64,000 bases of DNA from an uncultured Spirochaetaceae bacterium (GCA_964482325.1 CAYZXD010000001.1:3461-67460), one strand, 5' to 3'. Numbered from the stretch's first letter, positions 4,804-64,000 are shown. Numbers and translations are program-made. The notes: generated by a model from the letters alone, not told the origin.

Positions 4804-6121
4804 CGTCCTGACTCTCCATATATGCTTCTGTTGCACTGACATACCCTTCTGGCGTCAGAGAGAAACTGTCATCATAGTCGCACAGGAGTTTTTCGATACC
4901 ATGTGCCTTATATTCATCAGAGTCTGCCATTTTCAGTTCCAGTGAACAGTTGTCACAGTCGCGATCACAGGCAATGGAGCGGTAATTATCAGGTTCGCGA
5001 TACGTCGTGATCACTCCCTCGAAGTTTCTGAGAATCACTTTATTGGTTGACCAGGAGAGCAGATAATTCGGTCCTACCGGAATTTTCCCTCCACCTCCTG
5101 GAGCATCGATCACATACGTGGGAACAGCGAATCCGCTGGTATGACCCCGGAGGCTTTCCATAATCTCGATTCCCTTTCCCACCGAAGTTCTGAAATGGGT
5201 AAGCCCCTCAGATAAATCACATTGATAGAGGTAATACGGACGTACACGACTATAGGTGAGCTTTTGCACCAGCTTTTTCATAATCCGTGGACAGTCGTTG
5301 ACATCATTGAGCAACACTGACTGATTTCCTAATGGAATACCAGCATCAGCGAGCATGTTGATAGCTTTCCGTGATGACTGGGTGAGTTCCCGTGGATGAT
5401 TGAATTGTGTATTCAGCCACAACGGATGATATTTTTTCAACATGGAAACCAGTTTCTCGGTGACCCGATAGGGGAGGACAACCGGAATTCTCGATCCGAT
5501 TCTGATAATCTCGACATGTTCGATTTTCCGTAATTCAGACAGGATCCACTCAAGGTAATCATCGGAGAGCATCAGCGGATCACCACCGCTGAGCAGTACA
5601 TCGCGTACCTGTGGAGTGTTACGAATATACTCAAGCCCCTTTTCTATCTGTTCACGGTTGGGGATACTGTCGACATCTCCCACTTTTCGTTTACGTGTAC
5701 AATGACGGCAGTACATCGCACAGGTATTACTGATCAAAAAGAGGACACGATCAGGATAACGATGAGTGATTCCATCTACGGGGCTATCACCATCTTCATG
5801 TAATGGATCTTCCATATCATGTTCAGCAATATCGAGTTCACGTATATCGGGAAATGATTGCTTGAAAATGGGGTCATCTTCGATACACGTCGTATCGATA
5901 AGGGAAAGATAATAGGGAGTGATCGACATGGGGAACTTATTGATGGTTGCAGTAATATCCTTCCGCTTTTCTTCTGGGAATGTGTAGCCCAGCAGCTTTT
6001 CAAAGGTATCAACATCCTTGACACAATGCTTTAACTGCCATTTCCAATCACGCCAGCGATCCACACTGACATCGTTTTCGAAGCGATCGATTATTTGCTG
6101 TTCTGATTCCGTGAATGACAT
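4796..6121 (-). CDS. ablA: Lysine 2,3-aminomutase (radical SAM, PLP)
   Basis: [25 protein letters not shown] (CxxxCxxC), [18 protein letters not shown]; adjacent to ablB. Confidence 0.95.
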
Positions 6122-58942: not shown

Positions 58943-60607
58943 ATGAGTTTGACAGATACACATTATCAAGAACTAGAAGCAATTGTAGGAAAAAGGAACA
59001 TTTCACGAGACCCTGCGGTGCTCGATGGGTACCGATACAATCTCTCTCATACCGCCATACACCTAGGTCCTCATTTCGATGTGCTTACCCCAAGAGGTGC
59101 AGCGGTATTACTTCCCGGTAACACGGAAGAAGTGCAGGCGATTGTGAAATTCTGTAATCGGCATAAGATCAAATTTAAACCGTCATCAACCTTCTGGTCT
59201 GCACAAGGGTATCCGAATGATAATGAAACCATTGTGCTCGATATGCGGCGAATGGATCGGATTCTAGAAATAGATGAAAAAAACATGGTAGCGGTAGTGG
59301 AACCTGGGGTAATCGGAGCTACATTGCAGGCTGAGACCATGAAACGGGGTTTGAACTGCCATATCCAAGGTTCAGGTTGTTCGTGTTCCATCCTCGCAGG
59401 GGCTACCGCTTGGCTCGGTTCCGGTCCTGGTAATTTGTACGGTGGATGGCAGTATGAGAACCTGCTGGGTACTGAGTGGGTTCTCCCTACTGGAGAAATT
59501 CTCAGAACGGGATCTCTGGTGAACGATGCATCTGCGTGGTATTGCGGAGAAGGTCCTGGGCCAAGTATGCGCGGAGTTCTTCGTGGAATGTTTGGCACAA
59601 AAGGATCCCTCGGCGTATTTACCAAGTGTGCCGTAAAGTTGCATGCATGGCCGGGTCCTCAGAAACTTCCGGTCTATGGAAAAGCTCCTGCATATACTAC
59701 CAAGCTTCCCGCTAACTTTAGAGCCTACACATTGGGATTCCCTGATTGGAAATCTTGGGCTGATACTGCTCACATGCTCTGGGACAATGGGATTGGGTAC
59801 ACTGGTCACCGACAGTTTAACTTCCTCGGAAGGGATCTTAAATGGGCAATGATTCAAATTCTTACCGATCCTAGTAAAACTATTTCTGATTTGGAAGAAT
59901 TGATGAAAGAACCAGGTTATGCTGAAGCAAATCAGTCGATGAAGATTGATTTCCAACTCATCGTAACAGGCATGACACAGCGTGATTTTGACTGGCAGGA
60001 AGAGACGCTGAATGAAATTCTTTCTATTACCGGTGGGTATATAGTAGAGTGTATGGAGACAGAACACCTGCGCAATTACACCTTGTTGTACCTGCTTCGT
60101 CTCGGTCATAAGGCACTGAATCTAGTATACGGTGGAGGATATGACGGAAACTTTGGTATGATCAACTCCATTGATTTCGGTGCACAACGAGCCGAGGAGG
60201 CGGGAGCCTTCAAACGTGAGTGGGAAGAAAAAGGCCAGATTGTCCAAGCTGGTGGCGATTGCATGATGGGCCCCATTGGTGGCCAAGGTGGTGGAGGTAC
60301 CGGATTGTGGGAAAACTTTACCTGTTTCGATAGTTCAGATAAAGAATCCACTGATGGAGCTCTCGCATTCTTTGACGCATCTTTTGCCTATACCAAAGAA
60401 AAGGGCTGGAGTGGCTGCGGATTTGAAAAGCTTAATTCACTCGCACGTGGATATGATGGGTATGAAACTCCAAAAGAGATTCGTGATGCCGGACACGCAC
60501 ATGCACCTCAACCCGCAATATTCCGTTATCAGAATAAAGTCTATCAGGCTGTGAATCCACTAGATCTGGGAGATACCTACTACGAACGGCTTGACGACCA
60601 ACAGTAA
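58943..60607 (+). CDS. Second FAD-binding oxidoreductase (VAO/PCMH-type family)
   Basis: LLPGNTEEVQ, LDMRRMDRILEID, VEPGV, GSLGVFTK; AGGGAG RBS supports ATG 58943. Confidence 0.85.
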   Translation: MSLTDTHYQELEAIVGKRNISRDPAVLDGYRYNLSHTAIHLGPHFDVLTPRGAAVLLPGNTEEVQAIVKFCNRHKIKFKPSSTFWSAQGYPNDNETIVLDMRRMDRILEIDEKNMVAVVEPGVIGATLQAETMKRGLNCHIQGSGCSCSILAGATAWLGSGPGNLYGGWQYENLLGTEWVLPTGEILRTGSLVNDASAWYCGEGPGPSMRGVLRGMFGTKGSLGVFTKCAVKLHAWPGPQKLPVYGKAPAYTTKLPANFRAYTLGFPDWKSWADTAHMLWDNGIGYTGHRQFNFLGRDLKWAMIQILTDPSKTISDLEELMKEPGYAEANQSMKIDFQLIVTGMTQRDFDWQEETLNEILSITGGYIVECMETEHLRNYTLLYLLRLGHKALNLVYGGGYDGNFGMINSIDFGAQRAEEAGAFKREWEEKGQIVQAGGDCMMGPIGGQGGGGTGLWENFTCFDSSDKESTDGALAFFDASFAYTKEKGWSGCGFEKLNSLARGYDGYETPKEIRDAGHAHAPQPAIFRYQNKVYQAVNPLDLGDTYYERLDDQQ

Positions 60608-60617
60608 TAACAATGGG

Positions 60618-60643
60618 ACGCTCCCTGCATGTGCAGGGGGTGT
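60618..60643. terminator. Hairpin between convergent operons
   Basis: 11-bp stem ACGCTCCCTGC-ATGT-GCAGGGGGTGT. Confidence 0.6.
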
Positions 60644-61569
60644 TACCAACTTCCCCAGGCAATATCACTTCCGATGGTTACCGTAACATCCCAAAGGGCA
60701 TCTGCTGATACAGCAATGGATGATGATAGATATCCGAAGAGCCATGGGGTCATCTCGATATCCGTTCTGAGGGCTATTTCACCAGATATATTCCACTGAC
60801 TTAATTGAGTGAGATACTCCCAGTATCCCGCTGGTGAAACGTGAACTTGTAATCGCCGTGTCGGGGCATAGGTAAATTCAGAGCGCAACACGCCCGAAAT
60901 TCCTTCGCGGGTATTATCTTGCGAAGTGCGATAGGTGAACGAGCCATAGGTTATCCAATTCCCCTTCAGGCCGATGAGTTGACTCAGCTGTAGATCTAAA
61001 GAGGCAAGAACGTCAGTTTCTCCAGATGCGAAATAGGTATCGACATCACCGCTGATTCCCACCGTGTATGACAATTCAACTTTCGGCGCATGGATAAACC
61101 CGACTTTAATTCCGTTAACAATACTTTCCTGTGTCGATGATCCGCGATAAGACACGAAGGGATTTATCGCACGGTAGCCGAAAAATTTTCGGTAGGTGAT
61201 ATCCCAATCGGGAAAGAGGTATGATGAACTGTCCTCATTTCCACCGATTGAACCTTCGGCAGTAACAGCGGCATATAATTCATCGTCAGCAAGAAACCAA
61301 GTACTATCTACCTGCATCAGTAACCGGTCAGAGGTATTGGTGAAGTTGAGATCAATTTCACCCTCCCCTGAAAACGCCGCATGAAGATACATATCGGGAT
61401 CTATAAGTGTCCGATAATCCAGGTTTCCCCGCATACCGATGCTTCCAGTATCATCGGTGATATCATAGATACCCTGTATGCCGACGAATCCGGTAGTCTG
61501 AGCGGGAAGGGCAGAGACCATGCCGCTGAGGATGAAACAGATGATTACGATGATTGTTGATAAACGCAT
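60643..61569 (-). CDS. Secreted, probably outer-membrane beta-barrel protein of unknown function
   Basis: Signal peptide, alternating amphipathic beta-strand pattern, aromatic C-terminus. Confidence 0.65.
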   Translation of the reverse strand: MRLSTIIVIICFILSGMVSALPAQTTGFVGIQGIYDITDDTGSIGMRGNLDYRTLIDPDMYLHAAFSGEGEIDLNFTNTSDRLLMQVDSTWFLADDELYAAVTAEGSIGGNEDSSSYLFPDWDITYRKFFGYRAINPFVSYRGSSTQESIVNGIKVGFIHAPKVELSYTVGISGDVDTYFASGETDVLASLDLQLSQLIGLKGNWITYGSFTYRTSQDNTREGISGVLRSEFTYAPTRRLQVHVSPAGYWEYLTQLSQWNISGEIALRTDIEMTPWLFGYLSSSIAVSADALWDVTVTIGSDIAWGSW

Positions 61570-61581
61570 AGGGGAATTCCT

Positions 61582-62277
61582 TTATCGAGTAAGTCGTTGT
61601 AATTGAGCGAAAGAATGACTTTCAGCTGCAAATCTGATGATTCGCTCTGCCATTTCTGATACGGGTATATGCCGAGATAGTGCTTCTTGAAACAATGTGA
61701 TCACATTACGATATTCATCACTTGAGATCTCTGACTGCGTTAATGATTTAATAATATGCATACTTGTCCGGTCATCAATCTCCCATTGATGCAATGCGAG
61801 CAGAAGGCCCCCCGCATGACGTAACTGATCATACGATCCGTCTGCGAGTTGTAACAGCTCAAGCATATGCTGTTGACCGATCCCTTCCTTGATCAGCGTA
61901 GCGATACGATTCCAGTGCGCGGTATCTTTCAGGAACCCTTCACCTCGAACTGGTCCCAAAGCGGTGTATACCAAGGTGCGGGCAGATTCCAAAACCGCCA
62001 TATCCTGCTGCAAAGCTGCCTCTATTTTTTGTAGGGGTATCTTCTTGGCTACTCCCTCCTGAATCCTGAGAATAAGATAGTCGGTAGGAAGTTCCTGCTC
62101 TTCTGCCTGCTCTATCAGGGGTATTATTCGTTCCTGTTCGGTCTTCTGCAATTGCAGGCGATTCAGTGCCTCATATGCCTGCACATTTCTGATACCTCCC
62201 GAAAGCATAGCTGCGGGAAGTATCAGGAGGATGATACCGAGTGAAAGCTTTGCACAAACAAGAGTCCGTTTCGCCAT
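61582..62277 (-). CDS. Exported alpha-helical protein of unknown function
   Basis: N-terminal signal/TM, helical body; tightly packed in the ECF operon. Confidence 0.75.
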   Translation of the reverse strand: MAKRTLVCAKLSLGIILLILPAAMLSGGIRNVQAYEALNRLQLQKTEQERIIPLIEQAEEQELPTDYLILRIQEGVAKKIPLQKIEAALQQDMAVLESARTLVYTALGPVRGEGFLKDTAHWNRIATLIKEGIGQQHMLELLQLADGSYDQLRHAGGLLLALHQWEIDDRTSMHIIKSLTQSEISSDEYRNVITLFQEALSRHIPVSEMAERIIRFAAESHSFAQLQRLTR

Positions 62278-62286
62278 ATCGATCAG

Positions 62287-62856
62287 TTACCTTTGCTGTC
62301 CTCCAGCATGGAAGGGGCGGTTGCTTAATGACCTGCCACCAGGGGTTCCCAGCGATCCGAAAGCCCGTTGCAATGCGAAATTATTGCGTCCGGTCTGCTG
62401 CTGTCTTGAATTAATAGCCTGTTGCACGTTTTCTCTGATCTGCTTGCCGATATCGAGCGTTTGCCCCAGCTGTTGTTTCAGTGCTACTTCATGTACCCCT
62501 TGTGCAATTGTTTGTGCGATAAATTGATTCTGAAATCCAAGCTGGTGCATGTTCTGTACCTGATGAGCAGCCTCGTATGCCATTCTTACCCGAAATTCTG
62601 CCATTTCTGTTGATTCTTCAGGTGCATTGTGTGTTCCCTGATGTAACGCATAGGCCACCATCGCCGGATCAACACGGTCGAGATTTTCCCAGTTGATCAG
62701 CCGTGCCTGATTGCGAAACTGTGTCAGTTCCTCTTCAGTCCATGCCCGTTGTCGCAACTGATATGCAACTTGTTCCCAAAATGGTTCCTCTGTTGCCGCA
62801 AAGGCAGTGCTCAGCACTATGAGAAACAGCACTCCTACAATTACTAATTTTTTCAT
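62287..62856 (-). CDS. Secreted Gln-rich helical protein of unknown function
   Basis: Signal peptide MKKLVIVGVLFLIVLSTAFA, AGGAG RBS, low-complexity tail. Confidence 0.78.
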   Translation of the reverse strand: MKKLVIVGVLFLIVLSTAFAATEEPFWEQVAYQLRQRAWTEEELTQFRNQARLINWENLDRVDPAMVAYALHQGTHNAPEESTEMAEFRVRMAYEAAHQVQNMHQLGFQNQFIAQTIAQGVHEVALKQQLGQTLDIGKQIRENVQQAINSRQQQTGRNNFALQRAFGSLGTPGGRSLSNRPFHAGGQQR

Positions 62857-62871
62857 ACTATCTTCTCCTTG

Positions 62872-63483
62872 CTATAATTCCAATACTGAATTGACCCCGC
62901 CAAATCCATCGTCCACTGTGAGGTAGGCATTCGGATCGGCGATCCAATCTTTTCCATCTATAATAAACTGATACCGGTAGTCAGTTCCTTTTTCCAATTG
63001 TAATTCTATTTCCCAGACCCCCTGCTGAGTATGCTTTGCCAGATGATGGGTTTCGGTATCCCATCCATTCCAATCCCCCGCAACCACTACAGTTTCTGCT
63101 TCGGGTGCTTCAAGCGAAAGCGTGATTTGCTGAACATTTGCATCTGGTTCACTGAACGGGGTCCTCTCACGCGTAAAGGGGATGAGCATGAGCACTGCCA
63201 CAGCTGCAATAAGTGCAATCTTACCACCGGGAAATTGCCGGGATTTGCGAGTTTTATGCATTACTGCTCGTGTGATACGCTGCACAGCATCTGCAGGTGC
63301 AGTTGCAGCATATCCGGTAATTCCGAGTGTTTGATTTGCTGCAGCAAAATGCACCGAACAGGCGTGGCAATGAGCAATGTGAATCAATACTGCATCATCA
63401 AGAGTTTCTTCGGTATGCGGTTCTTGAAGCAGCTGTCCGGCAACCCACGTATTGATTGCTGTATGACATGTCTCACAATCCAT
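62872..63483 (-). CDS. Zinc-binding anti-sigma factor with TM and C-terminal CBM48/AMPK-type glycogen-binding domain
   Basis: HIAHCHAC (HxxxCxxC), TM IALIAAVAVLMLIPF, APEAETVVVAGDWNGW...GVW...YRYQFIIDG..W..DP......DGFGG.NS. Confidence 0.88.
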   Translation of the reverse strand: MDCETCHTAINTWVAGQLLQEPHTEETLDDAVLIHIAHCHACSVHFAAANQTLGITGYAATAPADAVQRITRAVMHKTRKSRQFPGGKIALIAAVAVLMLIPFTRERTPFSEPDANVQQITLSLEAPEAETVVVAGDWNGWDTETHHLAKHTQQGVWEIELQLEKGTDYRYQFIIDGKDWIADPNAYLTVDDGFGGVNSVLEL

Positions 63484-63539
63484 GATTCGTTCTCCTCTCA
63501 TCTCCTACTTCCCATATACGCTACAGTGCTTCTGAGGTT

Positions 63540-64000
63540 TCATCGTGGCGGATCAATTTGCCAATCATGGTTCTCCATCCATCGGGCAAGTTGTTCTCTG
63601 CACCGATGAAGTCGGTTTTTCACTGTACCTTCCGGAATATGGAGTACCTGAGATGTCTCCTGAACAGAAAGACCCTGCATGATGCGTAATACAAATACCT
63701 GCCGGTGTGATTCAGGAACTTCCTGTAAGGCTCGTATCAGGAGGGTCTCAGCTTCATTCGCTACAGCCATCTCTTCTGGATCTTCACTGTTTGTATCTGC
63801 AAGAGTAAGTAAAATCGTATCATCAAGTTCAAGCGGTTTTATCTGTTTCCCCCTCCGCTTTTTCCGTCGCCGGCTACGGATATAGTTGATGGCAATGGTA
63901 TAGGACCAGGAAAAGAAAGAGCGTCCTGTTGAGAATGTGGGGAGGGCACGGAAAATCCGGAGAAAAATTTCCTGCACATCATCTTCCCGATTCTCTGGGG
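63540..64000 (-). CDS. ECF RNA polymerase sigma factor, 5'-truncated by the window edge
   Basis: Frame open to the edge (...PENREDDVQEIFLRIFR), FFSWSYTIAIN, region 4 RQVFVLR...GLSVQETS..L.IPEGTVKNRLHR. Confidence 0.93.
   Translation of the reverse strand, partial: PENREDDVQEIFLRIFRALPTFSTGRSFFSWSYTIAINYIRSRRRKKRRGKQIKPLELDDTILLTLADTNSEDPEEMAVANEAETLLIRALQEVPESHRQVFVLRIMQGLSVQETSQVLHIPEGTVKNRLHRCREQLARWMENHDWQIDPPR

Follow-up and report, generated by a model that had tools for sequence, protein, structure and literature searches.

Pairs composed of an extracytoplasmic function (ECF) sigma factor and its cognate anti-sigma factor are among the most common signaling devices in bacteria, yet a signal has been assigned to only a minority of them. 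RsiW, which partners SigW in Bacillus subtilis, is a single-pass, HxxxCxxC-bearing anti-sigma factor that is removed by PrsW and then by RasP. To our knowledge, carbohydrate-binding modules (CBMs) have thus far been shown to function as direct glycan sensors only in the unrelated RsgI system of the clostridia. The RsgI proteins of Clostridium thermocellum are cited as CBM-based polysaccharide sensors in PMC12663171. Described here is a locus located at the end of a 64,000-nucleotide stretch of DNA (the window) from an uncultured Spirochaetaceae bacterium (GCA_964482325.1, CAYZXD010000001.1:3461-67460), in which an ECF sigma factor is encoded together with a putative membrane anti-sigma factor that carries a domain of the CBM48, or glycogen-binding, type. 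The window corresponds to C1:3461-67460 in a genome of 2.57 Mb distributed over 137 contigs, and a further stretch of the same contig (L002) extends the reading past the window end.

The locus consists of five co-directional open reading frames (ORFs), all on the minus strand, that encode the sigma factor, the anti-sigma factor, and three further proteins referred to as P3, P4, and P5. On balance, it is probable that these constitute a self-contained, autoregulated, envelope-sensing ECF cassette of the Spirochaetota with the CBM48 domain and P4 as its sensor pair. The ECF sigma/anti-sigma scheme is in itself familiar. What is undescribed is the CBM48-bearing anti-sigma sensor, its constant partner family, P4, and a lineage-specific extension to the outer membrane. 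A literature search returned no paper in which CBM48, AMPK1_CBM, or a glycogen-binding domain is linked to anti-sigma factors, and the main text of the ECF re-classification (Casas-Pastor 2021) mentions no CBM48-linked group. An earlier note, prepared from the sequence alone, had likewise known of no characterized example.

A recurrent five-gene cassette

The features of the locus are listed below; positions beyond the window end are given as window equivalents.

~64204 (window-equivalent): predicted promoter P1, TGAAAC-N17-CGTAT, 5′ of the sigma factor gene
63540-64000, minus strand: ECF sigma factor gene, 3′ 152 codons (Pfam and NCBIfam matches); the gene continues past the window end
63515-63542, minus strand: predicted internal promoter P2, with TGAAAC at 63542-63537, a 16-nucleotide spacer, and CGTATA at 63520-63515
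62872-63483, minus strand: putative anti-sigma factor, 203 residues from the ATG at 63483, directly 3′ of the sigma factor gene (homolog alignment A2)
63466-63477, minus strand: Cys 3 and Cys 6 of the anti-sigma factor, invariant and near-invariant, respectively
63358-63381, minus strand: zinc-binding-type motif of the anti-sigma factor, H35-x3-C39-x2-C42 (invariant columns in A2)
63166-63237, minus strand: single predicted transmembrane helix of the anti-sigma factor, residues 83-106 of 203, or 89-112 of the ORF (Kyte-Doolittle)
62875-63138, minus strand: predicted periplasmic CBM48/AMPK-beta-like domain, ORF residues 122-209 (PF02922, PF16561)
62287-62856, minus strand: P3, 189 residues, predicted to be secreted (N-terminal signal-type hydrophobic segment)
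61582-62277, minus strand: P4, 231 residues, predicted secreted or membrane-anchored helical-repeat protein (AlphaFold2)
60643-61569, minus strand: P5, 308 residues, predicted outer-membrane β-barrel (AlphaFold2, Foldseek, alignments A1 and A5)

The complete sigma factor contains 198 residues, its ATG lying outside the window at the equivalent of position 64136 (L002). The gaps between the anti-sigma factor and P3, between P3 and P4, and between P4 and P5 are 15, 9, and 12 nucleotides, respectively. Two convergent plus-strand oxidoreductase genes terminate at 60607. The gene calls and domain architecture drawn for the operon by the earlier note, including gaps of 9-15 nucleotides following the anti-sigma factor, are thus borne out.

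The anti-sigma factor is found in 11 of 201 sampled genomes of the order, representing 5 of 28 genera. In all 10 of the other genomes with a match, the order sigma, anti-sigma, P3, P4, P5 is kept wherever the contig permits it to be seen, and the same five-gene cassette occurs in 12 species loci and in ∼14 further metagenome loci. Among the carriers are the cultured Pleomorphochaeta sp. DL1XJH-081, Sphaerochaeta sp. UBA6084, and HGW-Spirochaetae-2 and -4. When the ORFs from 16 loci were clustered all against all, only the five cassette genes recurred, and the flanks varied. This arrangement is far beyond chance. The cluster conservation search also settles a point on which the original operon proposal depended, namely that the downstream genes are kept with the sigma/anti-sigma pair.

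P4 can be followed further than the complete cassette. A HMMER search of 1.84 billion cluster representatives (50% identity) with a P4 profile yielded 551 representatives at E ≤ 1e-3, 136 at E ≤ 1e-10, and 66 at E ≤ 1e-30, and all of the named cluster members that were looked up belong to the Spirochaetota. In a sample of the phylum, P4 is present in 7 of 401 genomes and 6 of 153 genera. Each of the five P4-positive genomes outside of the family has its best CBM48 match 0.07-1.1 kb upstream of P4, with contig and strand shared. Two of them, G227 (C48:3876-4948) and G252 (C113:1269-2288), have the P4 gene directly after the CBM48 gene, which leaves no room for P3. Four more contigs with P4 homologs, having GC contents of 36-60%, were also observed. 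The two longer ones show sigma factor and CBM48 genes 5′ of P3 and P4, and the two short ones display only P3-like, P4, and barrel genes.

The variant cassettes differ in what they retain. Locus L061 (1621-3083) contains only a sigma factor, a CBM48 anti-sigma factor, and a P4 homolog (E = 3e-13), with neither P3 nor a barrel gene. In locus L059, an anti-sigma factor without the Cys/His motif is followed by homologs of P3, P4, and P5 (hmmsearch E = 4e-15, 2.5e-18, and 8e-20, respectively). The motif is absent from the anti-sigma factors of both deep variants, L059 (6001-6663) and L067 (3531-4142), in which CBM48, P3-P5, and both promoter motifs are kept. The first homolog search additionally revealed proteins of ∼200 residues with a different N-terminus, a transmembrane helix, and a CBM48 domain ending in VDDGFGGVNS. 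The gene order is altered in L063 and L064, where a CBM48 protein is followed by one intervening gene, an ECF sigma factor, and a helical protein of ∼205 residues. The latter is related to the N-terminal half of P4 (hmmsearch, 33 bits; hhalign probability, 95.6%, E = 1e-8 over 90 columns). L064, a metagenome contig, also encodes (1421-2554) a 377-residue protein with a signal-peptide-like start and, at its end, a second CBM48-like module (IAGDFNGW…DDGMGG); P5 has no such module.

In all variants where both can be seen, including the L063 and L064 cassettes, P4 adjoins the CBM48 gene. Since they are shared across all of the variant cassettes, the ECF sigma factor, the transmembrane CBM48 protein, and the P4-type protein make up the invariant core. 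The other features, namely P3, P5 as a plain barrel, and the Cys/His motif, belong to particular lineages.

The putative anti-sigma factor and the envelope proteins encoded with it

The sigma factor matches the Pfam models Sigma70_r2 (PF04542), Sigma70_r4_2 (PF08281), and Sigma70_ECF (PF07638), and it scores 93.3 bits against the NCBIfam model TIGR02937 (cut-off 42.9). It contains sigma regions 2 and 4 only and matches ECF models, which places it among the ECF (group 4) sigma-70 factors; in the same Pfam and NCBIfam searches it was found to match these models rather than to be of the SigI type. The SigW, RpoE, and PRK11922 equivalog models score it well, with SigW at E = 5.7e-25, but all below their cut-offs.

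The mechanical ORF of the anti-sigma factor (62872-63501) begins 18 nucleotides 5′ of the probable start. Given that a GAGGAG Shine-Dalgarno sequence precedes the ATG at 63483 and that all homologs begin with M-x-C-x-E-C, this ATG is most likely the real start. The −10 element of P2 ends just 13 nucleotides 5′ of the upstream ATG at 63501. Similar spurious N-terminal extensions are observed in several relatives (L025, L027). Among the close homologs in alignment A2 (numbering of the 203-residue protein), Cys 3, His 35, Cys 39, and Cys 42 are invariant and Cys 6 is nearly so. The protein thereby contains the H-x3-C-x2-C motif and upstream Cys/His ligand typical of a zinc-containing anti-sigma (ZAS) factor. 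It has only one hydrophobic segment, with a maximum of 2.0 in a 19-residue Kyte-Doolittle window. From its position directly 3′ of the sigma factor in all loci and from the CxxC…HxxxCxxC motif, we infer that it binds and inhibits the sigma factor. The NCBIfam "antisigma" model NF052375 aligns with it at E = 6e-4 and 19.9 bits, the cut-off being 100. Pfam searches revealed neither an RsgI-type domain on the anti-sigma factor nor any FecR or TonB-dependent receptor domain, and the models for the N- and C-terminal domains of RseA and for RseB/MucB gave no match at E ≤ 1 among the five cassette proteins.

Conservation within the anti-sigma factor is highest in the CBM48 domain, which in A2 far surpasses the N-terminal domain in this respect. 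It matches CBM_48 (PF02922) with E = 4.3e-12 and 46.6 bits versus a gathering threshold of 22.4, and AMPK1_CBM (PF16561) with E = 2.3e-9 and 37.8 bits versus 26.8. Both models are matched by 10 of 10 anti-sigma homologs. The matches in the PDB are to the CBM48 domains of an alpha-amylase and of GlgB and to the CBM of AMPK beta-2. Within A2, the elements GDWNxW, YRYQF, a Trp, and DDGFGGxNS are invariant. The residues were mapped onto the solved AMPK beta-2 CBM chains 4y0g, 2f15, and 2lu3 (E ∼1e-3) and onto the beta-1 sequence. The sugar contacts of AMPK beta are Trp 100, Lys 126, Trp 133, Leu 146, Thr 148, and Asn 150. In the present CBM48 domain these positions are occupied by Trp, Gln, Trp, Phe, Gly, and Asn, respectively, all of them invariant in A2, and the family-wide DDGFGGxNS segment coincides with the AMPK-beta sugar-contact loop. 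The alpha-glucan proposal had presupposed sugar-binding Trp residues. At the level of sequence, the two stacking Trp residues are indeed kept together with the Asn, and an alpha-glucan can be regarded as a candidate ligand. The anti-sigma factor holds the sole CBM48 domain in the genome. The glycogen branching enzyme of this organism is of the GH57 type (C19:36989-38593).

Pfam and NCBIfam searches with P3, P4, and P5, both singly and for each alignment member, gave nothing significant. Word-indexed homolog searches returned two to three proteins each for P5 and P4, and the depth of the alignments came from the loci. P3 has a conserved region rich in Ala, Glu, Leu, and Gln, with few Gly or Pro residues between positions 23 and 135, and it ends in a Gln/Gly/Arg-rich low-complexity tail. 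Its composition suggests a helical protein. P4, as modeled by AlphaFold2, folds into 11 helices following an N-terminal hydrophobic helix (pLDDT 87.1). Of the two secreted proteins that had been described as helical, P4 is therefore all-helical in its predicted structure, whereas the assignment for P3 comes from composition. A fold search with P4 against the PDB gave nothing below E = 0.02. What similarity there was, to designed toroids and to the TALE and mTERF repeats, was weak, and P4 was assigned to no family. A kinship between P3 and P4 was also discarded (hhalign probability 14% over 21 columns).

The AlphaFold2 model of P5, calculated with a 15-sequence alignment, displays a 16-strand barrel with short loops (pLDDT 89.6, pTM 0.79). 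The barrel, which comprises 285 residues, begins directly after the signal peptide in a hydrophobic N-terminus, and the homologs end in Phe, Leu, or Trp. A signal peptide, an even number of strands, and a C-terminal aromatic residue are thus all present, as expected for an outer-membrane barrel. Foldseek matched the model to many outer-membrane barrels with a probability of 1.0, E ∼1e-7, and TM values of 0.45-0.59. OmpG, MOMP, Occ/OprD, and the general porins are among these, as are the exporters PelB, PgaA, and BcsC, and no single match stands out. The probable outer-membrane barrel of the first description is accordingly a predicted one of 16 strands. That P4 and P5 might represent a split exporter of the PgaA/BcsC type (helical repeat plus 16-strand barrel) was considered and rejected, as the fold match is unspecific and no synthase is linked.

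Promoter motifs and output

Two sharply conserved promoter-type motifs accompany the cassette. P1, TGAAAC-N16/17-(C/A)GTAT, is found 5′ of the sigma factor gene in 15 of 15 distinct close loci; its AAC-containing −35 and CGT-containing −10 elements are those expected of an ECF autoregulatory promoter. P2, TGAAAC-N16-CGTA(T/C), lies in the gap between the sigma and anti-sigma factor genes in the same 15 of 15 loci, ∼30-60 nucleotides before the M-x-C-x-E-C start, and it is present in the deep variants L059 and L067 as well. In the window, the TGAAAC of P2 starts with the TGA stop codon of the sigma factor gene; 3′ of the −10 element come GAGGAG and then the ATG at 63483. TGAAAC-N16/17-CGTAT equals the sigma-W consensus, and the layout resembles that of rpoE with its internal rseA promoter. 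As P2 stands in front of the anti-sigma-P3-P4-P5 genes, these would be direct targets of the sigma factor. Together, the two sites may give rise to a circuit with positive feedback via P1 and an additional negative arm via P2.

The strict promoter pattern has nine matches in the entire genome, two of which lie in this operon. In four relatives the motif occurs four to five times per genome versus zero to two times for a reversed control. Searches of the present genome with a regular expression and a position weight matrix revealed no further convincing target. On C19, a strict match falls within the coding region of the GH57 branching enzyme and was attributed to chance, the top extra site on C44 has no gene downstream on its strand, and that on C8 is doubtful as a target. 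There being no other convincing site, the main output in this organism would be the cassette itself.

In two relatives of different genera, TGAAACC-N16-CGTAT precedes genes for homologous lipoproteins of 315-345 residues that are 68% identical (L081, G048:C2, ∼371932; L075, G105:C41, ∼65167) and have no NCBIfam match. These lipoproteins are probably extra members of the regulon in the relatives; no homolog was found in the present genome. In L070 (G172:C1, ∼35532), the motif precedes a gene for a 178-residue secreted protein, the Gln/Thr-rich tail of which recalls the low-complexity tail of P3.

Between P1 and the cupin gene located 5′ of it there is a GC-rich hairpin and, after it, a run of T residues (ACAGCCCGA…TCGGGCTGTTTTTGTTTG; L002 ∼5680-5730, window-equivalent ∼64220-64270), which suggests that the cassette is transcriptionally insulated from the upstream gene. 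Also 5′ of the cassette, past the window end, is a complete-looking autoinducer-2 (Lsr) cluster (L002 6116-14470, corresponding to C1:68115-76469). At 743 and 398 bits, LsrK and LsrF exceed their cut-offs of 528 and 297, respectively, and LsrB-like, LsrR-like, and ABC transporter genes are likewise present. Neither the Lsr cluster nor the cupin gene is kept with the cassette in relatives.

Proposed mechanism and comparison with known systems

A mechanism for the cassette can be envisioned as follows. The cytoplasmic N-terminal domain of the single-pass anti-sigma factor would retain the sigma factor at the inner membrane, and the periplasmic CBM48 domain, jointly with P4, would serve as the sensor. 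In the Sphaerochaeta-type version, P3 and the 16-strand barrel P5 would allow the unit to reach the outer membrane. A signal perceived at the surface of CBM48, either an alpha-glucan-like glycan or the loss or rearrangement of the P4/P3/P5 partners, would free the sigma factor, most likely, by analogy, through regulated proteolysis ending with an RseP-type protease. An M50 protease of the RseP type is encoded in the genome (C4:18379-19662). The freed sigma factor would then transcribe its own gene from P1 and the anti-sigma-P3-P4-P5 genes from P2. The response would amplify itself and be reset by newly made anti-sigma factor, with the envelope proteins of the cassette as its main products.

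Far more tentatively, and in our estimation doubtfully, CBM48, P4, P3, and the loop-less P5 might form one periplasm-spanning complex that senses either a glycan or the condition of the envelope itself and rebuilds itself when broken, with P4 founding a new family of periplasmic CBM48-sensor partners that ECF cassettes of other gene order share. If this were true, a "glycogen-binding" fold would underlie a class of envelope sensors that has not been described.

Several observations weigh against the reading of the locus as a self-contained envelope-sensing cassette. Its distribution is sparse and patchy, with 11 of 201 genomes in the order sample and 7 of 401 in that of the phylum, and the cassette is therefore accessory. 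The zf-HC2 model (PF13490) matches 2 of 10 anti-sigma members with E ∼0.2, below significance, and a search of the PDB with the N-terminal domain gave no match to a solved anti-sigma factor. Because no anti-sigma model is significant, we can only infer that this domain binds the sigma factor. The ZAS label originally attached to the protein is consequently based on motif, topology, and gene position, and the deep relatives have no such cysteines. Physical contact between CBM48 and P4 is suggested by their co-occurrence only. P5 resembles barrels of many functions equally well. Finally, the promoter motif was derived from the same loci and so lends no independent support to its use by the sigma factor.

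Three other explanations were weighed. According to the first, which is possible albeit somewhat unlikely, the cassette is an envelope-stress sensor based on protein-protein contacts and no glycan is involved. CBM48 would dock P4, and possibly P3 and P5, in an arrangement akin to the shielding of RseA by RseB; once a disturbance of the outer membrane or periplasm had stripped the partners away, the anti-sigma factor would be exposed to proteolysis, and the induced proteins would repair or replace the complex. That P4 strictly accompanies the CBM48 protein in every variant, even where P3 or P5 is lacking, agrees with such a scheme, as do an output that is essentially the cassette itself, a two-promoter layout that resembles the internal-promoter design of Escherichia coli rpoE/rseA, and the absence of linkage to sugar metabolism. 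The retention of the AMPK-beta sugar-contact residues, on the other hand, is unexpected for mere docking, though these could equally well bind an aromatic or proline-rich segment of a partner, and there is no homology to the RseA or RseB models.

The second explanation, that of nutrient sensing, is the alpha-glucan or maltodextrin proposal of the earlier note in its fuller form, and we regard it as unlikely. Here CBM48 would bind periplasmic fragments of maltodextrin, glycogen, or starch, and the sigma factor would induce P5 as a channel and P3 and P4 as handlers. A CBM48 domain above the Pfam threshold that keeps both stacking Trp residues and the Asn, a DDGFGGxNS segment that falls on the AMPK-beta sugar-contact loop, and a sigma-type promoter before P3-P5, as would suit substrate-induced expression of a channel, are all in its favor. 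Moreover, the named carriers are of the sugar-fermenting Sphaerochaetaceae type, and the RsgI proteins of C. thermocellum provide a precedent for anti-sigma factors with CBMs as polysaccharide sensors. Yet the flanks of the 16 loci share no glycoside hydrolase, sugar transporter, or other gene related to glucans, no further promoter target was found in this genome, and among the relatives the only additional target to recur is a lipoprotein outside of the known families. P5 displays neither a constriction loop nor the signature of a sugar channel, and it resembles all types of barrel to the same extent; the constant partner is P4 rather than the barrel; and the CBM48 domain of the anti-sigma factor is the only one in a genome whose branching enzyme belongs to GH57. 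Nothing ties the cassette to the use of alpha-glucan or maltodextrin: no flanking gene is conserved, and the promoter motif gave no convincing extra target in this genome. The interpretation put forward in the earlier note is supported in part. The barrel and helical proteins, suggested there to be receptor or relay, need not be confined to that role: because a conserved sigma-type promoter lies directly in front of them, the anti-sigma factor and P3-P5 would be at least an output of the system, and again the constant partner is P4 and not the barrel.

The third explanation, cytoplasmic thiol or redox sensing via the CxxC…HxxxCxxC zinc site of an RsrA-type ZAS protein with the periplasmic domain as just an anchor, would accord with the four invariant ligands and the nearly invariant Cys 6 of the close homologs, but it is rated the lowest and very improbable because the deep variants L059 and L067 have lost the cysteines and have kept everything else (CBM48, P3-P5, and both promoters), in addition to which CBM48 is far better conserved than the N-terminal domain and many membrane ZAS proteins, such as RsiW, use the zinc site structurally only.

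We thus return to the envelope-sensing cassette with its CBM48-P4 sensor pair as the preferred reading. It combines a recognizable sensor fold, of the glycogen-binding type and with the sugar contacts kept, with a constant partner that has neither a Pfam model nor a significant match to a solved structure. The ligand of the CBM48-P4 pair, once known, would assign a function to a recurrent uncharacterized cassette and would show whether diderm bacteria employ CBMs as direct periplasmic glycan sensors. The two promoters and the cultured carrier, Pleomorphochaeta sp. DL1XJH-081, make the cassette open to experiment.

Among the systems most similar to the cassette are those of L063 and L064, which share with it the ECF sigma factor, the transmembrane protein ending in CBM48 (VDDGFGGxNS), and the P4-like helical protein. 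They differ in that the CBM48 protein precedes the sigma factor, and P3 and the ZAS-type motif belong to the Sphaerochaeta-type version. The FecI-FecR-FecA system and the SusC-linked ECF systems of the Bacteroidota resemble the cassette in co-encoding a sigma factor, a membrane anti-sigma factor, and an outer-membrane barrel, a combination that suggests trans-envelope signaling. P5, however, is a plain 16-strand barrel without a plug, a TonB box, or an N-terminal signaling domain, and there is no match to FecR.

The E. coli RpoE-RseA-RseB(-RseC) system likewise comprises an operon with a sigma factor, a membrane anti-sigma factor, and a periplasmic co-regulator. Its sigma factor is released by proteolysis in which RseP acts last, and a homolog of RseP is present in the organism studied here. 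In both systems one promoter lies 5′ of the sigma factor and a second one, which in E. coli is situated in or after rpoE and drives rseABC, is internal. Unlike the E. coli proteins, those of the cassette show no similarity to RseA or RseB, and they include a CBM48 sensor, a new helical-repeat family, and an operon-encoded barrel. With SigW-RsiW of B. subtilis, the cassette shares a sigma factor for which the SigW models are among the best matches, a promoter motif equal to the sigma-W consensus, apparent autoregulation of the sigma factor, and an anti-sigma layout consisting of an N-terminal Cys/His motif, one transmembrane helix, and an extracytoplasmic domain. It differs in its CBM48 domain, second internal promoter, three envelope proteins including a barrel, and diderm host.

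The SigI-RsgI system of C. thermocellum differs more in its parts. The sigma factor of the cassette is of the ECF type, its anti-sigma factor has a CBM48 domain rather than a CBM3, CBM42, PA14, or GH-like module and no RsgI domain, and it is found in a diderm host together with P3-P5 and without linked glycoside hydrolases. Both systems nonetheless have a membrane anti-sigma factor with an extracytoplasmic CBM, and if the CBM48 domain binds sugar, it would be a similar, direct sensor of glycans.

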